From a bacterium (GTDB lineage Bacteria > Patescibacteriota > Minisyncoccia > Phycocordibacterales > JBBTRF01), in contig JBAXTI010000001.1 of assembly GCA_037130265.1 (NCBI GenBank), positions 235,086 to 299,085 on the forward strand: a stretch of 64,000 bases of DNA, given 5' to 3'. Below the pieces are notes generated by a model. That model made no database searches, was not told where the DNA came from, and saw only the letters and a list, made by a program, of their open reading frames with translations. Position numbers and translations under genes: made by a program. Every line of letters starts with the position of its first letter. The stretch's first letter is position 1. Below are positions 3,030 through 56,855 of the stretch, piece by piece.

Positions 3030-6000
3030 ATGTCATCTAAAGATTCAGACAAGAAGCCAAAGGGCGGCAGCGAGGGCAAAAGCGACAAGGGTGGAAAAGG
3101 CGGCGCATCAGAGGCGTCGGCTTTGCCTGCGCGAGAGAATGTGGTGAGTCGCAGTATCACGACTGAAATGCGCGACTCGTATTTGGACTACGCGATGTCC
3201 GTGATCACTGCGCGTGCTTTGCCAGATGTGCGCGATGGTTTGAAGCCGGTACACCGACGTATTTTGTACGCGATGCATGAAATGGGTCTCACCGCGAGCA
3301 CGAAGACACGAAAGTCGGCCGCGGTGGTGGGAGACGTACTCGGAAAGTATCACCCGCACGGCAACGTGGCGGTATATGAGTCGATGGTGAAGATGGCCCA
3401 GGATTTTTCGATTCGGTATCCGCTGATTATTGGGCAAGGTAACTTTGGTTGTTTTACAAAAGACACAAAAGTCCGATTGGCTGACGGCCGCAATCTCTCT
3501 TTTGGCGAGCTCATCGATGAGGATAAGAATGGTAAGAAAAATTACGCCTTCACTGTCTCAAAAGAAGGAAAGATTGAAATCGCTCAACTCACAAAACCGC
3601 GGCTCACTATCAAAGGCGCCGAAATTATGAAAGTGATTCTTGATAATGGCGAGGAAATTCGATGCACGCTGAATCATAAGTTCCTTTTGAAAAACCAGGA
3701 ATACAAAGAGGCGCAATATTTGAAACCGGGCGAATCATTGATGCCTCTTTACACTCGTCTTTCTACGAAAGGCGAAAGTGCACTCTCGGACATGGTGGGA
3801 TATGAAATGATCTACCAACCGCTTGAAAATACTTGGGAGTATGCACATTATTTGGCCGACGCTTTCAACATCTCGACTGGAAAGTATGCAAAATCAGCTG
3901 GCAAGGTGCGACATCATGTCGATTTCAATAAACTCAATAATAGCCCAGAAAACATCCAGCGAATGCAGTGGCTTGAGCATTGGCGCCTCCACTCTGAACT
4001 AACCGCGAGTCGTCATAAAAATGATCCTGAGTATGTAAAAAAGCTTGCTGAAGGCAGAAAGATTTTCCGTGCCAAGAGCGGCATAAAAGAGCAGTACAGC
4101 CAGAGGATGTCAAAGAGAAATAAGCAGAATTGGCAGAATCCTGAATATCGTGCACAGATGATCGAGACGCTCCGTCGAGTGAATCTTGAGTATATTGCTA
4201 CTCATCCTGAAAAGCGCCTAGAACTTTCAGCTCGCGCAACCAAGACGTTGAAGCGATTGTGGCAAGATGAGACGTATCGCCAAGAGATGCACGAACGAAT
4301 CGTCCGAGGGAATAAAAACCACACCACCAATAAGACCGGCAAGAAAAAGTTTGATACGGTCTGCAAGAAATTGATCGAAGTCGGAGTACCGATTTCTAAA
4401 GAGACCTACGATGAATTTCGTCCGAAGGTGTATCCATACAAAGCGGCTACTTCGTGGGAGGTCGGTTTCAGTAAATATTACAATGGCAATATTGAACAGT
4501 TGACCGTAGAGCTTGCAGGAAATCACAAAGTGTCCAGTGTCGAATTTTCTGGCGAACACGAGGATGTATACGATCTCACTTTGCCAATAAGTCACAACTT
4601 TGCGCTGGCGGCGGGCGTATTTGTGCACAACTCCATCGACGGTGACGGTGCGGCAGCAGAACGATACACCGAAGCGAAGATGGCGCGTGTGTCCTCGACC
4701 CTGCTTCAGGATATTGAGAAAGACACTGTTGACTTTCGTCCAAACTACGAAAATACTCGCAAGGAGCCGAGTGTGTTGCCGGCCGCTGTTCCGAACCTAC
4801 TGCTGAACGGCACCCTCGGTATCGCCGTCGGTATGGCGACCAACATCCCGCCGCACAACCTTGGCGAAGTGGTGGACGCAACAACTCATCTCATCGAAAA
4901 CCCCGACGCTTCGACCGAAGATCTTTTGCAATTTGTGAAGGGTCCCGATTTCCCGACCGGTGCGATGCTCTACGCTTCAGCAGAAATGAAACATGCATAT
5001 ACCACCGGTCGTGGTGGTGTGGTAGTACGTGGCGAGGCGGAAATTGTCGAGACAAAGACTGGTTCATTCCAGATTGTCATCACTTCGATCCCATATCGTG
5101 TAAATAAGGCCGACCTCATCCTCACCATTGCCGACCTTGTGCGAGAGAAGAAAATTGAAGGTATTAGAACGATGCGTGATGAATCGACCAAGGACATCCG
5201 TGTCGTAATCGACCTCAAACAAGGCGCTTTCCCTCAGGCTGTATTGAACTTTTTGTATAAACACACCCAGCTTGAAGACACCTTCCACTTCAACACTGTT
5301 GCCCTCGTGGACGGCGTGCCGCAGACACTTTCGCTGAAGAGTGTACTGGAGGAATTTGTGAAGCACCGACAGATCGTCGTGCGACGCCGAACAGAATTTG
5401 ACCTTCGCAAGGCCGAAGACCGCGAGCATATCTTGCTCGGCTTGAAAAAGGCGCTCGACCATATCGATGAGATCATTAAATTGATCAAAAAGTCGAAGGA
5501 CACTCCGGAGGCGCATCTCAATTTGATGAAGACCTTCAAATTCTCCGACCGCCAGGCGACTGCTATTTTGGAAATGAAGCTGTCACGACTTGCGGGTCTC
5601 GAGCGACAGAAGATTGAGGACGAGCTCAATGCTGTCCAGGCGCTCATCCGCGAGCTCAAGGATTTGCTCTCGAGTGCAAAGAAGATTTTGGCCGTGATTA
5701 AGAAAGAATTGCTCGAAGTTCGCGCGAAATACGGCGACGAACGACGCACTAAAGTCATCCGTGGCGGCGTGAAAGAATTCAAGCCGGAAGATACCATTCC
5801 TGATGTGGATTCTGTGCTCGTGCTCACCGCAGGTGGCTACATCAAGCGCACCTTGCCAGACGAATATCGCCGACAGAAGCGTGGCGGTGTGGGTGTTGTC
5901 GATCTCGATACCAAGGAAGAGGATTTCATCACCCATATTTTGAATGCGAACACGCATGCGGATATGTTGTTCTTCACGAACAAGGGCAAGGCGTACCAGA

Positions 6001-6782
6001 TCAAGATGTACGAGATTCCAGAAGGCAAGCGTGCTACAAAAGGTAAGTCTATTGTAAACTTCCTCGCGCTCGCCGATGATGAACGTGTCACCTCGATTCT
6101 CCCAATGCCAAAGGAGGTGAAGAAGAGTGGTCTCAGTCTCTTCATGGTCACCAAAAACGGCGTAGGCAAGAAGGTGAATGCTGAAACCTTCCATGATGTG
6201 CGCCGAAGTGGTCTCATTGCTATTGGCCTCGATGCAGGTGACAGTTTGGTGTCCGTACGATTTGTGGAGAAGGGCGACGAAGTGATCCTTGCGACGAGCG
6301 AAGGTCAGTCGATTCGATTCAAAGAAACTGATATTCGTGAGATGGGTCGTGCGGCGATGGGCGTTATCGCGATGCGTCTCGAAAAGGGCGACACGGTCAT
6401 TGGTGCCGACGTCGTGAAGAAAGATATGAAGAAGCCGGCATTGCTGGTGATCATGAGCAACGGCTATGGCAAGCAGACCGAGCTCTCCGAATACAAGGTC
6501 CAGAAGCGCGGCGGTTCCGGTATTTTGACTGCGAAGATCACCGACAAGACCGGCAAGGTGATCACCTCGAGTGTGGTGGATACTGCAGCTGCAAAGGATG
6601 GGAAAGATGCCAAGGAGGGCGAGGCGGAGCTGGAGATGAACGAGCTTGTAGCTATTTCAAAAAAGAGTCAGGTGATCCGGTGCGATATCGCGGAGATACC
6701 AGTGCTCGGCCGACAGACTCAGGGTGTGCGTATTATGCGTCTGCGTGATGGGGACTCTTTGGCGAGTGCGGTGTGTTTGTAG
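3030..6782 (+). CDS. gyrA: DNA gyrase subunit A interrupted by a 394-aa intein
   Basis: The N-extein carries canonical GyrA motifs ([48 protein letters not shown]). After the intein the sequence resumes with [20 protein letters not shown], which includes the catalytic Tyr in RYTEA. A long GyrA C-terminal beta-pinwheel region follows. Total length is 1250 aa against about 830-900 for an uninterrupted GyrA. Confidence 0.92.
3450..4631 (+). mobile_element. intein within gyrA (Cys1 ... His-Asn/Ser+1) carrying an HNH-type endonuclease module
   Basis: The insert starts with Cys directly after GNFG ([13 protein letters not shown], splicing block A). Block B is TLNHKFL. It ends [22 protein letters not shown] followed by S+1. 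The middle region contains [18 protein letters not shown] (His-His...Asn...Asn, an HNH signature) and three tandem motifs of about 20 aa ([42 protein letters not shown]). Confidence 0.8.
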
Positions 6783-8322: not shown

Positions 8323-9957
8323 ATGAAACACCTCTCCAAAACTCTCCTTGACATCGCCCGAGCCGCCACGTTACTTCTTGTGATCGGACTTGGCGCCAGC
8401 GTAGTGTCGGCGCAGTTTTCGACACCGCTGGTGCTGACGTCTTCATGGGTAGAAGCTCCCTCTAATGCTCCTGCAAATAATGCATCCGCGCCAATCAACG
8501 TCAGTGTGAATGCTCAGCGAAAGTCAGGTTCTCTTTTGCTCGGTACATCTGCAGTTTTGAACTACCCTCAAACGATCATGCTTGACGTCCTCGGCCTCGC
8601 CAGCACTACCGTCCTTTCCACCGACTACCTCCTTGTTGCCAAAGACTTCACCTATGCCAAAGGCAGTAACCTTGCCGGCAAGGTGTTGACATCGGATGCG
8701 TATGGGGTGGCGAGTTGGGCGGCGCCGGTGGCATCATCTTGTACCGCAGGGACTTCAGGTACGGATGCTTTCAGTAATCCAGGTACCTACACCTGGACAG
8801 TTCCATCAGGCGTCACTTCTATAAAGGTGAAGGTATGGGGTGCGGGTGGAAATGGTGGTAGTGGTGCGCCTTCATATGCAGCGGCGGGTGCAAATGGCGG
8901 TGGTGGTGGTGGAGGGGGTGGTGGTGGAGGATACGCTGAAAAAACCATCACGATTCCCGCTGGGACGACTAGCTATCAGGTGACGGTAGGTGCTCATGGT
9001 GTTACCGGATTTTCAGCCTTCGACACTTCTGCTGTGAAAGCGACAAACGGCAGTAATGGTGTGAATCATACTGACAACGGCTCTACGGGTAGCGCTGGTG
9101 GTGCTGGTGGTGCTCCAATCGGTACATACACAGCATCTCAAAATGGTACTGCTGGTTCTGTTGGACAATCTGGCGGATACACAAATTGTGGTGGCGGCTT
9201 TAGCTACGACGGTAGCGGTGGTAATGGTGGTGCCTCAGTTTCACCTTCTACTGCAGGTGCCGGAGGTATTATTGGTTCATGTAGTCAGTCTGGCGTTGCT
9301 GGCGGTGCTGGAACTGTCGGTGGCGGAGGTGGGGGTGGTTCTGGATACTCTGGTGCGGTGCTGAACGGTGGTGCTGGAGGGGACGGACGAGTAACTATTG
9401 AATACAGTACGGGTGGATCTTGTGCAGCAACACAGACCACTACTTCAACCACCGGTGCCACTATTGTTTGCGGTGGCTGGGATGTGAAATACAACTCCGG
9501 CTACGTTGCCGGATCAAATTGGGGATGTGCTGTGCCTGACACTACATCAGTGGCATGTCCTGCTGGTTATGACGATATTAAATCAAGCAAGGTGACGATC
9601 AGCTTGGCGGAGCAAACACATTTGTGCGTACTGCACGCATCTGGTGGTACGACCTCGACTGGAGCCATAAGCGTCCCTTCAGGTACTCATTGCGGTTATT
9701 TTTCAGGAGTGCTAGATACCAACAAACAATATACATTTGGCAGTCGTCAAACTACAGGACTCTGTCAATCAAAGGCGCTCGTATACTCAGATGCATATAG
9801 CGGATTTTCAACAATGGGCGCTGGTGCCACGCAAGCATCTCGAAATAGTTACTTCTGTCCGGCTGGCTTTTCTTTCCTTTATTACACATACGCACCAGAT
9901 TCTAACGGTGACACGTATCGAGGTGACAGTTTTACTGGCACTTGCATGAAAGACTAG
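8323..9957 (+). CDS. secreted glycine-rich surface protein with a poly-Gly tract and a Cys-rich C-terminal domain
   Basis: Signal peptide (MKHLSKTLLDIARAATLLLVIGLGASVVSAQF). A G12 run is encoded by a (GGT/GGN)n repeat at about 8881-8940. Many GGxGG repeats are present. The C-terminal roughly 180 aa contain more than 12 Cys. Confidence 0.6.
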   Translation: MKHLSKTLLDIARAATLLLVIGLGASVVSAQFSTPLVLTSSWVEAPSNAPANNASAPINVSVNAQRKSGSLLLGTSAVLNYPQTIMLDVLGLASTTVLSTDYLLVAKDFTYAKGSNLAGKVLTSDAYGVASWAAPVASSCTAGTSGTDAFSNPGTYTWTVPSGVTSIKVKVWGAGGNGGSGAPSYAAAGANGGGGGGGGGGGGYAEKTITIPAGTTSYQVTVGAHGVTGFSAFDTSAVKATNGSNGVNHTDNGSTGSAGGAGGAPIGTYTASQNGTAGSVGQSGGYTNCGGGFSYDGSGGNGGASVSPSTAGAGGIIGSCSQSGVAGGAGTVGGGGGGGSGYSGAVLNGGAGGDGRVTIEYSTGGSCAATQTTTSTTGATIVCGGWDVKYNSGYVAGSNWGCAVPDTTSVACPAGYDDIKSSKVTISLAEQTHLCVLHASGGTTSTGAISVPSGTHCGYFSGVLDTNKQYTFGSRQTTGLCQSKALVYSDAYSGFSTMGAGATQASRNSYFCPAGFSFLYYTYAPDSNGDTYRGDSFTGTCMKD

Positions 9958-46868: not shown

Positions 46869-46939
46869 TGGGGGATCGTCTAATGGTAGGACATCAGGTT
46901 TTGGTCCTGAGTATCGGGGTTCGAGTCCCTGTCCCCCAG
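46869..46939 (+). tRNA. tRNA-Gln (anticodon TTG)
   Basis: TGGGGGATCGTCTAATGGTAGGACATCAGGTTTTGGTCCTGAGTATCGGGGTTCGAGTCCCTGTCCCCCAG. U1-A72 and G73 match the bacterial Gln identity set. Anticodon loop TTTTGGT. Confidence 0.85.
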
Positions 46940-47024
46940 CAGTCTAGTTTAGTTCTGAACGACCAAGAGGGGTCAGAACAAACAGATATCTATACCGTCA
47001 TCGCATACCTGCTGAGAGCAGTAT

Positions 47025-47052
47025 TCAAGACAAAAAATCACCGATACAAGTC
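47025..47052 (+). terminator. rho-independent terminator downstream of tRNA-Gln
   Basis: aatcaccgatacaagtcggtgatt followed by ttttg. Confidence 0.65.
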
Positions 47053-47093
47053 GGTGATTTTTTGTTAAGATAAGATGGATTAATTGATTATGT

Positions 47094-47675
47094 ATGTCAG
47101 AAAATACCTGGAAAGAATACTTCGAAAGAACAAAAGATAGTAAACCTAGACCTCTACTTGTTAAGGCAGTGGATTTGGTGGTGGACAAAAATGAAGCACT
47201 TGATTTGGGCTCGGGTGCTTTTAATGATGTTAGATACTTGGTTTCGAAAGGTTTTAAACATATTACAGCTGTAGACAGTAAACCGATAGCTCAAGGTATC
47301 ATTCAGAATTTTCCGACAGAAATTGTCTCATATATTATCAGTTCTTTTGAGAATTTTGATTTTGTTGAAAACAAATATGATCTTATAAATGCTCAATACT
47401 CTCTACCATTTAACCCAGAGAATACTCTTGAAAGAGTTTTCAAATCAATCACTTCTTCTCTTAAAGATGGAGGGATACTCACAGGTCAATTTTTTGGAAC
47501 TAAAGATGAATGGAATGTTGAAGGCCATAAAATGAATTTTCAAACTCGCGAACAAGCAGAAAAATTACTAAGTGGTTTAGAAGTTATTGATTTTCAAGAA
47601 GAGGAGGAAGATAGAAAAACAGCAAAGGGAGATATGAAGCATTGGCACGTTTTCCATTTTATAATAAAAAAATAA
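47094..47675 (+). CDS. class I SAM-dependent methyltransferase (island cargo)
   Basis: Motif I ALDLGSGAFNDVRYLVSKGFKHITAVD. Small MTase fold, possibly TehB-like. Confidence 0.55.
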   Translation: MSENTWKEYFERTKDSKPRPLLVKAVDLVVDKNEALDLGSGAFNDVRYLVSKGFKHITAVDSKPIAQGIIQNFPTEIVSYIISSFENFDFVENKYDLINAQYSLPFNPENTLERVFKSITSSLKDGGILTGQFFGTKDEWNVEGHKMNFQTREQAEKLLSGLEVIDFQEEEEDRKTAKGDMKHWHVFHFIIKK

Positions 47676-47676
47676 T

Positions 47677-48171
47677 ATGGAAATAAAAACTCAAATAACA
47701 AATAGTAGAGGAAAAGTTTTCGATACTATATATAAAGATGGAGATCCTGAAACAGATTTAGAAAATAGTGTTATACACGGTGTTCATTCATTTTGCTTTT
47801 ATAAAGATAAGATGGTTATAGTTTCAAATTCAAGAAAAGAGTGGACTCCTCCTGGTGGCGGTATTGAACCTGGAGAGAATTATAAAGAAGCATCTATCCG
47901 TGAAATAAAAGAGGAAGCAAACATGAAAGTTCTTCACCAAGAGTGCATTGGTTACCAAGACGTTTGGATATCGGATGAAAACAGGATGGTAAGGCAGGTA
48001 CGAATGTTTTGTATAGTTGAACCATATGGAGATTTTGAGAAAGATCCTGATGGAGATATTTTAGAAATAAAACTGATTGATCCAAAAGATTATAAAGAAT
48101 ATATAAAATGGGGAGAAATCGGAGATCATTTGATGGGAAGAGCTTTAGAGCTTAGTCAAAAAATAAAATGA
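47677..48171 (+). CDS. NUDIX hydrolase (island cargo)
   Basis: Nudix box GGGIEPGENYKEASIREIKEEANM (Gx5Ex7REUxEExGU). Confidence 0.75.
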   Translation: MEIKTQITNSRGKVFDTIYKDGDPETDLENSVIHGVHSFCFYKDKMVIVSNSRKEWTPPGGGIEPGENYKEASIREIKEEANMKVLHQECIGYQDVWISDENRMVRQVRMFCIVEPYGDFEKDPDGDILEIKLIDPKDYKEYIKWGEIGDHLMGRALELSQKIK

Positions 48172-48812
48172 AACTTATTTTTCAATATAATAAAGAAAAA
48201 GATATTTGGTGCATCCTTAACAAAGGAAAAAGTTCTAATAATTCTCCAATTCCTACTAAAGTATATGAAGAACTTGTGGCAACATGCGGAGAAAATCCTT
48301 CGGCGGATTCCACATCTTCTTTTGTAAATAAATACTTTTTAGATAAAAACATAAAAGTAAATGAATATATAGAAAAATATCAGAGGGACTGGTATAGCAT
48401 TACAGAGAAATATCAAAAAAGAGCAGAGTCAGTGTTTGGAGTTTCATTACCGAGCGACATTGTTGTGTATCTTACGATTAATAATAGATGTCCATACAAC
48501 ATAGAAGATAATTACTTTTTTGTGACAATTCCTGCTTCTTCAGTTAGAAGAACAATAATGCACGAATTGTGGCATTTCTATATGTGGTACGGGCTAGGAG
48601 CAGATCAAGAAGAAAAATTAGGAAAGCAAAAGTATAATGATTTAAAAGAGGCTTTGACTGTATTGCTCAACGTGGAATGTAAAGATTTACTGCCAGAAGG
48701 GGTATATGATGGCGGTTATCCACAACATAAGGAAGTGAGAGAAGAAATTTTAGAATATTGGTCAAAAAATAAAAATATCAAGGATCTTTGGAAATATTTA
48801 CAGACAAAATAA
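48168..48812 (+). CDS. hypothetical protein with an HExxH motif (island cargo)
   Basis: IMHELWHFYMW contains HExxH. There is no other recognisable similarity. Confidence 0.35.
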   Translation: MKLIFQYNKEKDIWCILNKGKSSNNSPIPTKVYEELVATCGENPSADSTSSFVNKYFLDKNIKVNEYIEKYQRDWYSITEKYQKRAESVFGVSLPSDIVVYLTINNRCPYNIEDNYFFVTIPASSVRRTIMHELWHFYMWYGLGADQEEKLGKQKYNDLKEALTVLLNVECKDLLPEGVYDGGYPQHKEVREEILEYWSKNKNIKDLWKYLQTK

Positions 48813-48813
48813 T

Positions 48814-49581
48814 ATGGACATCGATAAACACAAAAAACAATTCGGTAATCAAGCAGAAAACTATACTAAGTATAGAAAACCATATACTGAAAAGTTATAT
48901 GAGCTTCTTTTCTCCTTAGCTCCTGGAAAAAAGATTCTAGATATAGCTTGTGGTACAGGTAAATCTACAGAACCGATGGTCAGAAGCGGAACGGAAGTTA
49001 TAGGATGTGATCACGATCCACTGATGATTGCAGAAGCTATTAAGCAGGCTGAGATTAAAAGCTCACCTATTAAATACATTGTTGCAGATGTTGAACATTT
49101 ACCATTTGAAGATTCAAACTTTGATGTAGTAACTGTAGGCACGGCATTTCATTGGTTTGTAAATGAAAAGTCTGTTACAGAAATAAAACGAGTACTTAAG
49201 GAAAAGGGTTTATTTTTTATTTTTTGGACTCTTACCACTAAAGATGTACCTGAAGAAGATTCCATCCCAGGAAGTTTCTATAAAACATTCAATTGGGATA
49301 AAGTTCCACCTGAATTAAGAAATTTAGATTATATTTCAAATTTCTTCAAAGAGCAGGGATTCCAGAATGTTAACACCGCAAGAATTCCATTTAGTCACAA
49401 TGATACCGTCGAAGAACAAGTAGGACTAATGAAAACAGCTTCAAGTTACGAGATTCTATCAGATAGTGAAAAAGAACGATTTATCAGAGAGTTAACTGAA
49501 CTTCTTACAACTAAATTAGGTAATAGACCCTACTTCACTTACGAAGAGGAAATACAGGTGTGTTATGGGTTCAAGAAATAA
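48814..49581 (+). CDS. class I SAM-dependent methyltransferase (island cargo)
   Basis: Motif I ILDIACGTGKSTEPM, then post-I GCDHD, then VTVGTAFHWF. Confidence 0.65.
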   Translation: MDIDKHKKQFGNQAENYTKYRKPYTEKLYELLFSLAPGKKILDIACGTGKSTEPMVRSGTEVIGCDHDPLMIAEAIKQAEIKSSPIKYIVADVEHLPFEDSNFDVVTVGTAFHWFVNEKSVTEIKRVLKEKGLFFIFWTLTTKDVPEEDSIPGSFYKTFNWDKVPPELRNLDYISNFFKEQGFQNVNTARIPFSHNDTVEEQVGLMKTASSYEILSDSEKERFIRELTELLTTKLGNRPYFTYEEEIQVCYGFKK

Positions 49582-49598
49582 TCATATAAAGTAATTAT

Positions 49599-50585
49599 AT
49601 GGAGTCAGTTTTACAAAAAATAACGGAAGAATATAACCTCAATTTTAAAGTTCTTGATAAGGTTACTCAAGGTTTTTTAAGTGATAATTATATTCTTGCT
49701 GATGGTCAAAAGAAGTATTTTCTTAAGAAATATAGGTTTAAAAATAAAGAACGAATGAGTGAGGTACATTCTGCGAAAAGATATTTCTTCGAAGGTGGTA
49801 TTCCAGTAATTATGCCCTTGCTCACAGATTCAGATGAAAGCTTTTTTGAACATAATGGGAGTTTTTATGCCCTCTTTCCTTTCATATTAGACCATCAACT
49901 TAAACCAGATGAAATCACTAAAGACGCGATTGTTTCTCTTGGAGAAACTCTTGCTCGACTACATCTTCGAGGAAAAGAAAGTAAACTTAAAATAAATGAA
50001 TTTTTCAGACCATGGGATAAAGAAGAGCGAATGAGAGGAATCAATCAAATTCTCGAAAAGATCTCACTCATAGAAAACAAAACCGATTTTGATATTCAAG
50101 CCGAAAAGAACATCTTGCTCAAGAAATCAGTTATTGAATCAAATAATCGAACATATGAATCTTTTAACTTTCTTAATGATCACCTCATTCACGGCGATTA
50201 CATGATAGGAAATGTATTTTTTGATGACCAGAACAATGTATCCAATGTGTTTGATTTTGAAAAAACAGAATATGCACCTAGATTTTTTGAGCTGTTTCGT
50301 TCAATGATATATACAACTTTCTTTGATGAAAATATTACGGAAGAGACTTTGGCTAATACAAAACTCTATCTCGATTCATATTTGAATATATATCCTATGT
50401 CAAAAGAGGAATTGGATGATGCTTTTACAGCATATTATATCAACAGATCTCACTCTTACTGGGTGGAAGCTGAGCATTATCTTAGAGGGAATACGAGAGC
50501 TGATGAACTTCTTGAAAGTGATATTGCACGCATGAATTATTTTTCAGAGAATTTTGAAGTATTAAAGAAGTATCTTATAGAATAG
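49599..50585 (+). CDS. aminoglycoside-phosphotransferase/choline-kinase-fold (APH-like) kinase (island cargo)
   Basis: Brenner motif HGDYMIGNVFFDD and a downstream DFE (VFDFEKTEYAP) are present. Length and layout fit small-molecule kinases of the APH/ChoK/HSK-II family. Confidence 0.6.
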   Translation: MESVLQKITEEYNLNFKVLDKVTQGFLSDNYILADGQKKYFLKKYRFKNKERMSEVHSAKRYFFEGGIPVIMPLLTDSDESFFEHNGSFYALFPFILDHQLKPDEITKDAIVSLGETLARLHLRGKESKLKINEFFRPWDKEERMRGINQILEKISLIENKTDFDIQAEKNILLKKSVIESNNRTYESFNFLNDHLIHGDYMIGNVFFDDQNNVSNVFDFEKTEYAPRFFELFRSMIYTTFFDENITEETLANTKLYLDSYLNIYPMSKEELDDAFTAYYINRSHSYWVEAEHYLRGNTRADELLESDIARMNYFSENFEVLKKYLIE

Positions 50586-51918
50586 TAATAAGTTTCTCTT
50601 TCAGAATAATCTTACTCTTTAAACATCCCAGTAAATCTCTTTTTTCAAATATTGATCCTTCGGTTAGTAAATACCTAGCGTAGTTTCTAATGTCAGCATC
50701 TTTCGCTTGATAGTTTTCTTCAGTCTTACCCATTATTCCAGAATGAAATTTCTTATGTCTCTCTATTTCGATTTCCAACTTCTTTTTAAGACCAGATTTG
50801 TCTAGATCAATCCTATCTATCATTTCTAGTAATTGTGATATTAAAACTTTTTCTTCAATGTAGCCTTCTTTGCAATGAATATTTTTAGATCGAGTACAAC
50901 CATAGTATATATACTTTGCTATCGTTCCATCTTTTAGATTCTTATACTTTTCCTGTGCAGTTACTCCTGATCCACATACTCCACAAGTAAGCATCCGAGT
51001 AAATGCAAACTCTTTATTTTTTTCAGTCGATTTTATTTGTAAATGTAATTGTTTTTGTGCCGCATCAAACAAATCTTTTGATATGAGTGGAGTATGTTTA
51101 CCTTGAAACCATCTACCACTTAATTTTGGGTATTCAAAAGTGCCATGATAAAAGTGATTATCTAAAATAGTGTAGACATTACTTAGGGTTAGAGGCTTTC
51201 CATTTCTGGATAGGAATTTAATCTCTCGTAACCATTTATATACTTTTCTGCCACTCCAACTCTCATATCCGACTTTCGTAAACATTTCTTTGATAATTGA
51301 GCTTCTGTCTGGATCTACTAATACTACGCCCGGCTTGTCTCTGTCTTTAGAATTTAAGTAGCCAGTAGGAGCGACACTCGGCCAAAGTCCCATTTCACAT
51401 TTTGTTTTGAGTCCTCGTTTTACATTAATGCTTTTATTGTCGTTCTCAAGTTTGGCTTGTGATCCGAGAATCATGAGTAGAAATTTCTCATTTGGATTGT
51501 TTGTAAATCTTTGGCTATGAGTCCGTATCTCAATTAACTTTTTCTGATCTAGTAAGTCTACTAATGATCCAAGATCTCCAGCATTTCTGCTTAAACGATC
51601 TGGATGCCACACAAGTATTCCATCAAACTTTCCATTCCTAATATCTGTAAGAAGTTTGTTGTATACCGGTCTTTGCCCGCAATCTTTTGCTGAATGGGAT
51701 TCTCTATAAATCTCTAGAATATTGAGGTTATCCCTTTGGGCAATGTTGAGCATCTCTTTAACCTGAGAATCTACTGACAAAGCCTGCCTTTCCTCGGCTT
51801 CGCTTGATTTACGGGCATACTCATTAACAGATGAGTCTCTACCAAATGAAAAAAGATTCAGCAAAAACTGTCCTGTGCTACGGAGACTCAAACACGTGGG
51901 GTTCAAAATAATCTTCAT
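50575..51918 (-). CDS. large serine recombinase (resolvase/invertase catalytic domain, recombinase domain and Zn-ribbon)
   Basis: N-terminal ARKSSEAEERQALSVDSQ (catalytic Ser region), GILVWHPDRLSRN, then a recombinase domain and CGVCGS...YYGCTRSK...HC zinc ribbon. Confidence 0.75.
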   Translation of the reverse strand: MKIILNPTCLSLRSTGQFLLNLFSFGRDSSVNEYARKSSEAEERQALSVDSQVKEMLNIAQRDNLNILEIYRESHSAKDCGQRPVYNKLLTDIRNGKFDGILVWHPDRLSRNAGDLGSLVDLLDQKKLIEIRTHSQRFTNNPNEKFLLMILGSQAKLENDNKSINVKRGLKTKCEMGLWPSVAPTGYLNSKDRDKPGVVLVDPDRSSIIKEMFTKVGYESWSGRKVYKWLREIKFLSRNGKPLTLSNVYTILDNHFYHGTFEYPKLSGRWFQGKHTPLISKDLFDAAQKQLHLQIKSTEKNKEFAFTRMLTCGVCGSGVTAQEKYKNLKDGTIAKYIYYGCTRSKNIHCKEGYIEEKVLISQLLEMIDRIDLDKSGLKKKLEIEIERHKKFHSGIMGKTEENYQAKDADIRNYARYLLTEGSIFEKRDLLGCLKSKIILKEKLITIL

Positions 51919-53933: not shown

Positions 53934-54553
53934 TTGTTTATTGACCCCATGAACTCCGCAATCCACGAATTCCTCCTCTTCGGTCTAAAACAAGCTCGGG
54001 CCTGCGTCTTCGTGGGGTCGTTCTTCGTACTTCTGTTTCTGTCCAACCACATTCCGCTGTTCGGTCTCGCTCGATACGACTTTCTGTTTATCGCGGCGGT
54101 GGGGAGCTATATCAGCCAAGCGTGGAAAATCATGAAGTTTCGGCTGAGCGATTACGAGCACTACGCGGCGAGTGCGGTGCTCTGCTTTCTCATCTATCTC
54201 AACTTTTTCACCAATCACTACATCTACGACTTCCGATACTTTTTGATCGCCGCTGTCTTCGCTTTTTTCTGGAAGACCCGGGTGTATTTCACGGTCTCTA
54301 GCAAGGAGCGCTACATGCCAATGAACATCGGCTTCCTACTCATCGCCTCTTTCATTTGGGTAGCAGAAAATATCTCCACCTACCTCGGTGCTTGGAAGTA
54401 CCCCGACCAGGTCCACATGTGTGGAGCGTGGTCTCCACCGGTAAAATCACCTCGTGGTTCCTGATGGTCATCATTAGCTTTATTCTGGTGGCGTATCTGA
54501 AGCATTTTAAGAGGGAAATGAGGGGTTCTGGTTCCATAGCGCAAGTCCGCTAG
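53934..54553 (+). pseudogene. DUF817-like polytopic membrane protein, apparently frameshifted near 54415
   Basis: Frame 1 (53934-54464) ends ...WKYPDQVHMCGAWSPPVKSPRGS. The adjacent frame (54356-54553) continues with a hydrophobic membrane-like sequence WSVVSTGKITSWFLMVIISFILVAYL. There is no homopolymer at the switch point. Confidence 0.4.
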
Positions 54554-54669
54554 GCTCGCGCGCGTTCTTCATTTATTGTCCACACGCTACTTTCTTTCGA
54601 GGCTGTACAATAAACAGTATTTTTCGGTTACTGTTTTTTTATTATCAATAAACACAAACCCATCACTCC

Positions 54670-55993
54670 ATGAACACCTCTTGCTTTAGTCGCCGCGGTA
54701 TATTGAGTCCCGTTACTATCTTTGGTTCACTACTACTCGCGATACTCTCCGCATCTTTTTTCTGCCTCTTCGGTTTCTGCCGCTACGACCATCTCTACCG
54801 ACATCGTCACTGGCGGGACTATTAGTTCTGGTAATATTAATTCGACTGGCACCATTGCTGCATCTTCTACGATCAACACGAGCGGTACTACTGGTGGTTA
54901 CAAGATAGATGGCAATTTGATCTTGCAAGCATCGAGTTCGAGGGCCACCTTGGGCACAGGATATCAGACACTGCTGTCCAACATTTCCGGTGCATACTCA
55001 AATGCGTACGGCCTACAGGCGCTCCAAAGCAATACTACTGGTTCGTACAACAACGCCTTTGGTTACCAGGCACTCAATGCCAACACGACCGGAAGTTTTA
55101 ATACCGCCTTTGGCGATCGCGCTCTCAGCCTCGGAACTACTGGCTCGCGAAATACCGCGGTCGGTTATTTATCTCTCATCAACAACACTGCTTCGTATAA
55201 CACGTCTGTAGGCTGGCAATCCCTCCGGGCCAATACCAGCGGTAGTAGTAACGCGGCCTTCGGTCTTTCTGCGATGGATGATAACACTACTGGTAGCTAC
55301 AATACTGCTGTGGGTGCCCAAGCGATGCAGCACAGTACCACCGCTTCGTATAATACTGCCGTGGGCACGAATGTGATGCTTAACAACACTTCTGGCGATT
55401 CCAATACTGCAATCGGACATCAGGCGCTTCTCGCAAATACTACCGGTTATGGCAATAATGCAATGGGTGTTGGTGCTATGGAGTACAACACTACTGGTTC
55501 GTACAACAATGTTATCGGATTGTTGTCTATGTATCAAAATACTACTGGTTCTTACAATACCGTCCTCGGATATCAGGCTGGATACATGGTGACAACTGGT
55601 AGCAACAATCTTATTCTTTCGAGCGCGACCTCTTCTCTGTCCAATGCCAACCTCACGACGGGCAATCAGAATATCATCATTGGAAACAATATTTCTTTCC
55701 CAAGCGCCACGGCAAACGGCCAACTTAACATTGGCAACATTATTTATGGCACGAGTATCACAGGCACCGGCTCGAATCTCTCTAATGGAAATATTGGCAT
55801 TGGCACTACCACTCCGGCTACCAAGCTCCATGTTTCTTCTGGAGCGAGTGCGACCACTACTGTTAGTGTAGGTGAACTCGGCCTCACTTCAAGCAAAGCA
55901 TGTGTGAATATGAATCGAGCGGACGGTGGGGCAGGCAGCTTCTACATCAATGCTTCGGGTGCGCTTGTTTCAGAAGCTAACTATTGCCGCTAA
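54670..55993 (+). CDS. secreted tandem-repeat surface protein (about 14-aa N-T-x-G-S-x-N-T-A-x-G-x-x-A-L repeats); signal peptide and body are in different frames, separated by a T6 tract
   Basis: The ATG at 54670 encodes MNTSCFSRRGILSPVTIFGSLLLAILSAS (signal-peptide-like) and then runs into a stop at 54825. The main ORF (54722-55993, TTG start, no signal peptide) is in the +1 frame, and the two frames meet at gcatcTTTTTTctg (54756-54761). The body has at least 18 tandem repeats such as ANTTGSYNTAVGAQAMQHSTTASYNTAVGTNVMLNNTSGDSNTAIGHQALL. Confidence 0.6.
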
Positions 55994-56005
55994 AAGCCAG
56001 TTTGT

Positions 56006-56755
56006 ATGAGAAAATATCTCACTCTTATCCTGTCGGTAGCCGTATTTGCTCCCTATGTGGCATTCGCTGCTTATAATGATGTGACACTCACCACAGATGC
56101 GCTTATTGGCGTGGCCGGCTACACGTTGAATATCACCGGTTCGAGTGCCGCCATACAATCGATCGTGGTAAATGATTCAAACTTCCAGGTCAGTATTTCT
56201 TCCGGTTCCTCTATTCAGATCACCTCACCGACCCAGCAAGAGTTGTCGGTTGATATCAGTTCCTTCACCACTAGCAATGTCTGCGTAACAGGGACTTCTG
56301 TCCTCACTCTCGCTTCAAGTGGTGCCTCGGGGACAGTCACCGTCACTCCGAGTTCGACGGTGTGTACGACGCCAGCTTCCAGCAATAGTGTGGCGATCGG
56401 CAACGGTCCGATTGTGGGTAGTATTGTGGGTAGTGGTTTCTATCGTCCTGCTTCCTCATCGGGTGTGTCTGTTCAGGCGCAGGCGACATCGTCTGTGTCG
56501 GTTGCGAAAGACAAGAAACAGCAATTCAGCAAAGACCTTTTTTTGGGAAAGACGGATCCAGAAGTCTTGGAGCTGCAGCGGTTTTTGAACAATAATGGCT
56601 TTGTCGTGTCTGTCAGCGGGATGGGGTCAAAGGGAGGGGAAACTACGTATTTTGGTGCAGCTACTCGAGCCGCTCTCATTCGATTTCAAAAGGCTCGGAA
56701 GATCTCTCCTGCTCAGGGATATTTCGGTTCTGTTACGCGCAAAGCTTTGAAGTAG
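56006..56755 (+). CDS. secreted Thr/Ser-rich protein with a C-terminal peptidoglycan-binding (PG_binding_1-like) domain
   Basis: Signal peptide MRKYLTLILSVAVFAPYVAFAAY. The C-terminus is DLFLGKTDPEVLELQRFLNNNGFVVSVSGMGSKGGETTYFGAATRAALIRFQKARKISPAQGYFGSVTRKAL. Confidence 0.65.
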   Translation: MRKYLTLILSVAVFAPYVAFAAYNDVTLTTDALIGVAGYTLNITGSSAAIQSIVVNDSNFQVSISSGSSIQITSPTQQELSVDISSFTTSNVCVTGTSVLTLASSGASGTVTVTPSSTVCTTPASSNSVAIGNGPIVGSIVGSGFYRPASSSGVSVQAQATSSVSVAKDKKQQFSKDLFLGKTDPEVLELQRFLNNNGFVVSVSGMGSKGGETTYFGAATRAALIRFQKARKISPAQGYFGSVTRKALK

Positions 56756-56855
56756 TCTTGAGTTAAGGTTCATGTCTAACAAGCGCATATCTTTTTCACA
56801 TTTTTTCTGTATAATAAGCGAATAAGCCTTTATTTCATTTTCAACACACATTCAC

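Follow-up and report, generated by a model that had tools for sequence, protein, structure and literature searches.

The genes oipA, sabA and hopZ of Helicobacter pylori carry CT repeats in the region that codes for the signal peptide, and slipped-strand changes in these repeats switch the genes on and off (PMC10564699). Homopolymer contingency loci have been catalogued with PhasomeIt in Neisseria and Campylobacter (PMC5953494, PMC6321876): The tract lies in the 5' part of the coding sequence, and a change of one nucleotide in either direction toggles translation of a surface determinant. One published phasome analysis applied cut-offs of at least 11 for T tracts, at least 9 for G tracts and at least 6 for dinucleotide repeats (PMC5953494), and gene families in these genera mix phase-variable members with 'locked' ones whose tracts fall under the cut-off. 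A full-text literature search returned nothing on phase variation in Patescibacteria, the lone co-mention concerning archaeal methylation.

The locus considered here belongs to a Patescibacteria bacterium and was found in a 64-kb window, by which we mean the whole stretch of DNA analysed; its features are collected in Table 1. An initial annotation had noted that the only convincing signal peptide (from ATG 54670) and the body of a repeat protein lie in different frames, that a run of six T sits where the frames meet, that loss of one T would fuse the two parts, and that the body, when started at TTG, has no export signal, and each of these observations was confirmed. Frame 1 from the ATG encodes MNTSCFSRRGILSPVTIFGSLLLAILSASFF..., with a basic n-region and a hydrophobic core (Kyte-Doolittle 11-mer mean up to 2.5), and what follows the signal peptide is out-of-frame read-through to a TAG stop. 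Within the interval where both frames must join, the T6 run is the sole homopolymer. Removing one T in silico yields a 440-aa fusion (...LLLAILSASFSASSVSA↓ATTISTDIVTGG, the arrow marking cleavage), and a T8 allele is likewise in frame (441 aa); T4, T6, T7 and T9 alleles give products of only 51-79 aa. The repaired protein opens with a Sec signal peptide of textbook form and has an AXA site (...SASFSASSVSA↓ATTISTDIVTGG), with cleavage predicted at SVSA↓ATTIST. The body ORF keeps all motifs of its family and has no second lesion, and its nominal start at TTG 54722 is merely the first start-type codon in the open frame 2, from which the N-terminus reads MVHYYSRYSPHLFSASSVSAATTIST and lacks a hydrophobic core. 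Because of the extra T in the signal-peptide region, translation from the ancestral ATG ends after 51 codons, and this stop leaves the body without an export signal or a credible start: The allele is null.

Table 1. Positions of the frameshifted gene, its parts and its neighbours in the 64-kb window
Feature	Coordinates	Strand	Remarks
DUF817 pseudogene	53934..54553	+	internal deletion of 198 nt (in frame) plus a frameshift close to the 3' end
Lineage-specific segment with two-gene cassette	54517..56779	+	closest relatives have a 90-124-aa ORF instead
T7 tract	54634..54640	+	30 nt 5' of ATG 54670; probable promoter or leader
ORF1, 51 aa	54670..54825	+	first ~30 codons comprise the Sec-type signal peptide MNTSCFSRRGILSPVTIFGSLLLAILSASF with its ancestral start
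Body ORF, 423 codons	54722..55993	+	frame 2, open from 54707
T6 homopolymer	54756..54761	+	meeting point of signal-peptide frame 1 and body frame 2
Mature N-terminus defining the family, A↓ATTISTDIVTGG	54779..54817	+	directly 3' of the predicted signal-peptidase site
About 12 tandem 17-residue units, NTTGSYNTAxGxxALxx	54980..55588	+	modelled as beta-solenoid
C-terminal 65-aa module, GIGTTTPATKLHVSSGASATTTVSVGELGLTSSKACVNMN...NYCR, two conserved Cys	55796..55990	+	68-83% identity to at least 15 other loci
Partner gene, secreted protein with C-terminal PG_binding_1	56006..56755	+	PF01471, E 4e-10; 12 nt downstream

Homologues were sought with the frame-repaired protein as query, and of the more than 7500 repeat-region relatives that were returned, end-to-end matches form a small subset (P0002, P0004, P0011, P0017 and P0020 at 43-53% identity, and a 543-aa gene at locus L006 with 50% identity to the repaired protein). 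In each of the end-to-end homologues an in-frame signal peptide leads directly into A↓(A/S)TTIST(N/D)I.TGG, and they share the C-terminus ...KLHVSSGASATTTV.(I/V)GELGL..SKACVNMN..DG..GSFY......E.NYCR. The intact homologues recovered come mainly from Patescibacteria, loci with like architecture bearing names such as Paceibacteria, Taylorbacteria and Adlerbacteria, and in all of them the signal peptide directly adjoins the ATTIST motif; orthologues that begin at the in-frame TTG and lack a signal peptide, as the initial annotation had envisaged for an intact gene, did not turn up. Since every intact homologue joins an in-frame signal peptide to this motif, the ancestral gene was fused and the window copy bears a +1 lesion. 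ORF1 and L018 have similar n-regions (CFSRRGIL and YFSRRNIF, the latter in a protein starting MKKYFSRRNIF...). This likeness, together with the architecture of the homologues, establishes ATG 54670 as the ancestral start, and the ORF1 signal peptide is no chance match. Scans of GTDB genomes and metagenomes yielded no close orthologue (above 55% identity; the best had 50%), and none of the 423-aa, 440-aa and 51-aa products had an exact match in the collection, which does contain the neighbouring proteins.

The family to which we assign this gene is defined here and has no name; it comprises loci L003, L005, L006, L008, L009, L014, L015/L066 and L018, along with L067, L068, L075, L081 and L099-L101. 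After frame repair, the window protein carries all three of its distinguishing features, namely the signal peptide, the ATTIST motif and the NYCR module. The product of the gene that follows also has a signal peptide, and in L005 and L018 (55-58% identity), as well as in L008 and L081, a homologue of this partner comes immediately after the family gene, a conserved adjacency that supports the earlier guess that the two genes are co-functional. As judged from these sequences, the family represents widespread secreted fibres of Patescibacteria that are paired with a peptidoglycan-binding partner, and the probable role of this partner is to anchor the fibre in the wall.

The repeats that make up the middle of the protein had been described as having a period of about 14 residues; self-identity reaches 0.44 at a lag of 17 residues, against 0.06 at a lag of 14, and the period is accordingly 17. 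No tandem repeat was found at the DNA level within the repeat region. In the AlphaFold2 model (mean pLDDT 68, repeats 72-91) there is one short strand per 17 residues, and the repeat fold is modelled as a generic beta-solenoid. Neither a Foldseek search with this model (no significant match), nor profile searches of the repaired protein against Pfam and NCBIfam, nor a PDB sequence search with the protein assigned it to a family or a known structure. Giant proteins contain many copies of the C-terminal module (26,285 representatives at E < 1e-3 in a HMMER scan), so the module alone does not define the family.

The initial annotation had compared the repeats with YadA-like adhesins and phage tail fibres. 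Most repeat-region relatives carry labels such as 'tail fiber domain-containing' or 'trimeric autotransporter adhesin'. These relatives end mostly in the intramolecular chaperone domain Peptidase_S74, which a Pfam search found to be absent from the window protein; YadA_head and Hep_Hag repeats were not detected in it by profile; and there was no match to YadA_anchor, the C-terminus being formed by the 65-aa NYCR module instead. A match of the alignment profile to the phage fibre 6f45 arises only via the S74 part of the homologues, which the window protein lacks.

In the closest genomes (L104, L108 and L109, whose DinB genes have 81-83% nucleotide identity to that of the window), the gene order is DinB ... 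DUF817 - small ORF - CSD - MsrAB - MerT, and the cassette of fibre and peptidoglycan-binding genes is absent from all three. The window DUF817 gene, by nucleotide comparison with the same genomes, has lost 66 codons and is frameshifted: Its profile match covers positions 1-44 and 109-217, with the last 22 positions lying in a frame-2 ORF (54356-54553), and DUF817 homologues (n = 2583) are mostly 255-270 aa long, 75-84% identical and intact, and the figures for length and identity hold for those of Patescibacteria. The fibre gene and DUF817, the only two disrupted genes that we noticed in the 64-kb window, are thus neighbours at a variable site. The two-gene cassette is accessory, and its absence from the nearest relatives, along with the decayed DUF817, favours plain decay. 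A search for att-like direct repeats flanking the low-GC island gave nothing convincing, and a scan for promoters and terminators near the gene gave nothing exceeding shuffled expectation. Elsewhere in the window, two pairs of in-frame abutting ORFs were suspected of being further split genes. The pair 40384/42835 proved to be distinct genes, one for a ClpB-like AAA protein and one for Dus, and the pair 27167/27473 gave no Pfam match.

Before the lesion is interpreted, it has to be asked whether the genome really contains six T, and whether six T really silence the gene. If the extra T were an assembly or sequencing error, or the consensus of a mixed population, the true sequence would be T5 and the gene intact. 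Indel errors arise most often at homopolymers, and the gene has no other flaw. However, T6 is present both in a SPAdes contig (ERZ4222710 in ENA, 368 kb, coverage of about 20), on which the 423-aa ORF is annotated, and in the Logan contig of SRR12676966, with 0 mismatches to the window over 12.4-12.75 kb; the assemblies may share reads, so their independence is not proven. A GenBank MAG has the same neighbouring proteins (MEI6345901/02/04/05) on a 464-kb contig, in a comparison that covered the surroundings of the tract. The window holds 106 A/T runs of at least 6 (93 A6/T6 runs and 13 longer ones). About 65 other ORFs are compact and look intact, among them those for ClpB, TopA, IF-2, SerRS and an intein-bearing GyrA of 1250 aa, and none is split at any of these runs, which makes an artefact unlikely. 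The other broken gene, DUF817, has a deletion of 198 nt, which is impossible as a homopolymer error, and we consider artefact an improbable explanation. More improbable still is that a full-length protein is made from T6 by recoding, either through +1 ribosomal frameshifting on UUU_U or through transcriptional slippage. If tRNA-Phe slipped by +1 from UUU (54757-59) to UUU (54758-60), the product would be identical to that of T5, and T runs are known, in principle, to permit slippage at a low level. Yet no homologue has a shift at this point and the site is not conserved, the A-site codon in the 0 frame is the common UUC and neither a stop nor a rare codon, there is no Shine-Dalgarno-like stimulator upstream and no stable RNA structure downstream (fold z = +0.47), and six T are fewer than the tracts of about 9 or more nucleotides at which transcriptional slippage is efficient. 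What characterizes prfB-like +1 frameshifting or slippage, a conserved site with stimulators or else a long run, is thus missing, and recoding was rejected for want of a stimulatory element at the shift site. The least credible of these explanations, to which we give almost no weight, is that the gene is intact as annotated, starting at TTG 54722 and encoding a non-exported protein of 423 aa. Gene callers do report 423 aa in both public assemblies, and a GenBank number was apparently assigned to this product between MEI6345902 and MEI6345904. But the product begins MVHYYSRYSPHLFSASSVSA↓ATTIST, that is, with the tail of a signal peptide that has lost its hydrophobic core; by-eye inspection found no Shine-Dalgarno-like ribosome-binding site ahead of the TTG; the ORF that starts at the upstream ATG supplies the missing half of the signal peptide, which is homologous to that of L018; and all homologues are predicted to be exported. 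The public annotation that uses the TTG start is probably wrong.

A more serious alternative is that of the initial annotation, under which this is a true contingency locus: T6 would be its 'off' phase, T5 or T8 cells in the same population would be 'on', and the episymbiont would vary a surface fibre exposed to hosts or phages. Several elements of this proposal hold up. The lesion occupies the textbook position of a switch, among the 5' codons for the signal peptide of a surface protein; nothing in the body is damaged; the locus behaves as a toggle, in that T5 and T8 each restore a good signal peptide ('on') and T4, T6, T7 and T9 do not ('off'); and repeats occur at the 5' ends of other family members (L067 and L009/L023/L025/L075, described below). 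The tract itself does not fit the proposal. It is not a hypermutable repeat of the kind expected at a contingency locus, being an ordinary run, one among the many A6/T6 runs of the window, and it falls far under the lengths that give high switching rates (cut-offs of PMC5953494). Its position and length are not conserved among homologues, T6 is the length on which the SPAdes and Logan assemblies agree, and a DNA pattern search of JGI metagenomes, in which the T run was allowed to vary in length, did not find the locus. The decay of the neighbouring DUF817 gene and the dispensability of the cassette in relatives also count against a maintained switch, and we regard a contingency locus at T6 as rather unlikely. 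The explanation that we favour, with confidence only slightly above even, is a recent null allele produced by slippage; the gene would be an incipient pseudogene, and not a dedicated switch, in a surface cassette that can be dispensed with. The first gene of this cassette, when in frame, encodes a Sec-exported protein composed of the signal peptide, ATTISTDIVTGG, about 12 solenoid repeats of 17 aa and the Cys module, and the second a secreted peptidoglycan-binding protein that probably serves as the wall tether of the fibre. Replication slippage, most simply from T5 to T6, would then have struck the signal-peptide coding region, presumably not long ago, in a cassette that appears dispensable and subject to fast turnover; reversion from T6 to T5 would be possible in principle, at the low rate of any 6-nt run. 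The lack of a second lesion in the body is equally expected of a maintained phase-variable gene.

Repeats are found at the equivalent end of homologues, as would be expected of a modular phase-variable family, and their length makes selection for switchable expression plausible. The gene at L067 (contig OBEQ011034161.1, with the A run and the CT repeat at 3199-3246) reads ATG-A7-CAAATTGGC-T6-(CT)13, with (CT)13 encoding the LSLSLS of the signal peptide; it is out of frame as assembled and would be restored by A6, by (CT)14, or by A8 together with (CT)12. At L009 (5983-5991) and L025, G9 lies 13-15 nt before the start, and in L075, which belongs to another organism, the corresponding position is occupied by G11. 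L023 and L025 stem from the Ga0209542 and Ga0209541 samples. The L023 contig, which shows no difference from L009 across 5.27 kb on the downstream side, ends in at least G11 at the poly-G site; poly-G at a contig end can be a sequencing artefact, so this excess may be one, which tells against taking the extra G as evidence of switching. Among 758 kb of fetched loci there are 8 G/C runs of at least 8, and half of them are the tracts of L009, L023, L025 and L075. Runs of T7 or T8 occur within the signal peptides of L005, L018, L099 and L009. By hand count, family 5' ends carry about 0.7 tracts of at least 7 each, compared with 0.14-0.25 for other genes at the same loci (a control figure obtained by subtracting the family tracts from the totals); such tracts are thus about 4-5 times commoner at family 5' ends, in small numbers and with the AT-richness of promoters as a confounder. 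Irreversible loss also occurs in the family, since the L009-type gene has an in-frame TGA in three assemblies (L009, L023 and L025).

Taken broadly, these repeats raise the possibility that the surface-fibre family, window gene included, is SSR phase-variable, with T6 in the 'off' state or recently locked off. The proposed switches would be poly-G just upstream of the start, and CT and A/T tracts inside the signal-peptide coding region. We regard this family-wide reading as tentative and on balance doubtful. L067 and the poly-G loci are, at any rate, much better candidates for switches, and a much better lead, than the T6 run of the window.

By itself the window locus matters little: An accessory surface gene is represented there by a null allele. 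The wider value lies in a fibre family several members of which have long repeats at their 5' ends; one member (L067) is out of frame as assembled, and one differs in tract length between assemblies that are otherwise the same (L023 and L009). For CPR bacteria, attachment to the host is physical and essential, and exposure to phages is heavy. Diversity-generating retroelements have already been described in these bacteria; phase variation of the fibre family, if true, would stand beside them as the first evidence of contingency loci in ultra-small episymbionts, and confirmed switching would reveal stochastic on/off control of surface structures in CPR bacteria.

Set against described proteins, the window protein differs from those labelled 'tail fiber' or 'trimeric autotransporter adhesin', which carry Peptidase_S74 (PF13884) or the YadA head (PF05658) and whose repeat proteins occur in Bacteroidota, Patescibacteria and others: It is without S74, YadA anchor or T9SS tail, and has the ATTIST N-terminus and the NYCR module. 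With the ATTIST...NYCR family of Patescibacteria it shares the signal peptide, the motif A↓(A/S)TTIST(N/D)I.TGG, a variable middle and the 65-aa C-terminal module, often with a PG_binding_1 gene next; the middles differ among members, 17-aa repeats being present in some only, and the window copy is frameshifted in its signal peptide whereas most others are intact. Its likeness to oipA, sabA and hopZ of H. pylori consists in a frame-setting repeat in the signal peptide, an 'off' state that amounts to a short leader, and an intact body; yet H. pylori is a Gram-negative pathogen and the window organism a Patescibacteria bacterium, and the repeat in question is a 6-nt homopolymer, seen at no length other than T6, and not a long hypermutable repeat. 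With the loci of Neisseria and Campylobacter it has in common a homopolymer in the 5' coding region at which a change of one nucleotide would toggle translation, and by the PhasomeIt cut-offs (G of at least 9, T of at least 11) T6 would count as the mark of a non-phase-variable, locked homologue. The design of oipA and sabA is shared, within the same family, by L067 with its (CT)13.

The 5' end of the family member at locus L067 is a strong candidate for a contingency locus. Its T6 run and (CT)13 tract both lie within the region encoding the signal peptide. The start is out of frame in the assembly as it stands; the addition of one CT unit or the loss of a single A would restore a secreted protein of 335-336 aa. 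In four other loci with family members, poly-G tracts (see table) precede the family gene start by 13-15 nt. Two of these loci, L009 and L023, are identical across 5.27 kb downstream apart from the poly-G itself, and G/C runs of eight or more are very rare elsewhere in the 758 kb of loci.

The L009-type orthologue is interrupted in its repeat region by an in-frame TGA (...SYNT*LGREAG...), which recurs in three assemblies and marks either a nonsense pseudogene or a site of read-through. An alternative ATG is present at L009 6005, and its use would leave the T7 run of the signal peptide out of frame.

Features at family loci, in the window and in its closest genomes
Feature	Location	Strand	Description
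Poly-G	L009 5983-5991		G9
Poly-G	L025 3983-3991		G9
Poly-G	L023 1-11		at least G11, at contig end
Poly-G	L075 777-787		G11; organism differs
In-frame TGA	L009 6748-6750 = L023 768-770 = L025 4748-4750
Family member 5' end	L067 3152-3250, contig OBEQ011034161.1		A10 upstream, then ATG-A6-CAAAA-ATG-A7, then T6 + (CT)13
Copper-resistance block	between DinB and DUF817 in closest genomes		CsoR-like repressor, P-type ATPase, multicopper oxidase
tRNA-Gln	window 46869-46940		island start
Large serine recombinase	window 50575-51918	minus	island end
Island cargo	within window 46869-51918		two methyltransferases, NUDIX hydrolase, APH-family phosphotransferase

The cassette comprising the fibre and peptidoglycan-binding genes (window 54517-56779) is missing entirely from the three closest genomes (L104 8753-9211, L108 and L109), in which a hypothetical ORF of 90-124 aa occupies the corresponding position between DUF817 and the cold-shock gene. 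These genomes also carry the copper-resistance block, which the window lacks at that position. The DUF817 gene (window 53934-54553), which adjoins the fibre gene on its upstream side, is a pseudogene: It has undergone an internal in-frame loss of 198 nt (66 codons) and has a second lesion, a frameshift close to the 3' end, with the final 22 positions of the DUF817 profile falling in a frame-2 ORF (window 54356-54553). Unbroken homologues are 255-270 aa long and 75-84% identical; the public annotation (MEI6345902.1) gives a 171-aa protein.

Elsewhere in the window, an island of low GC content (46869-51918; 32-41% vs. about 52%) is probably an integrated mobile element; a search for direct repeats flanking this island found none. 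The GyrA gene (3030-6782, 1250 aa) contains an intein, whose Intein_splicing domain (residues 150-534) splits the DNA_topoisoIV domain into two parts, and residues 153-361 of a 544-aa ORF (8323-9957) match the Pfam glycine-rich domain Gly_rich_2 (E 6e-8).

In the two closest homologues that have the cassette, a TACAAT box, identified by eye only, lies only about 8-9 nt ahead of the ATG (L005 ~1530-1549, L018 ~3270-3289), and because of this spacing their mRNAs may be leaderless or have a very short leader. At L015 5107-8106 (= L066 3107-6106), three tandem paralogues of 366, 234 and ~380 aa have the ATTIST N-terminus and NYCR C-terminal module in common and differ in their middles, forming a small surface-protein array within one Paceibacterota genome. 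The 65-aa C-terminal module itself (GIGTTTP.TKLHV..., window 55796-55990) matched 26,285 cluster representatives at E < 1e-3 in a full HMMER scan, and recurs as the repeat unit of giant proteins (P0123-P0272) of 1200-7700 aa, each with 15-60 copies.
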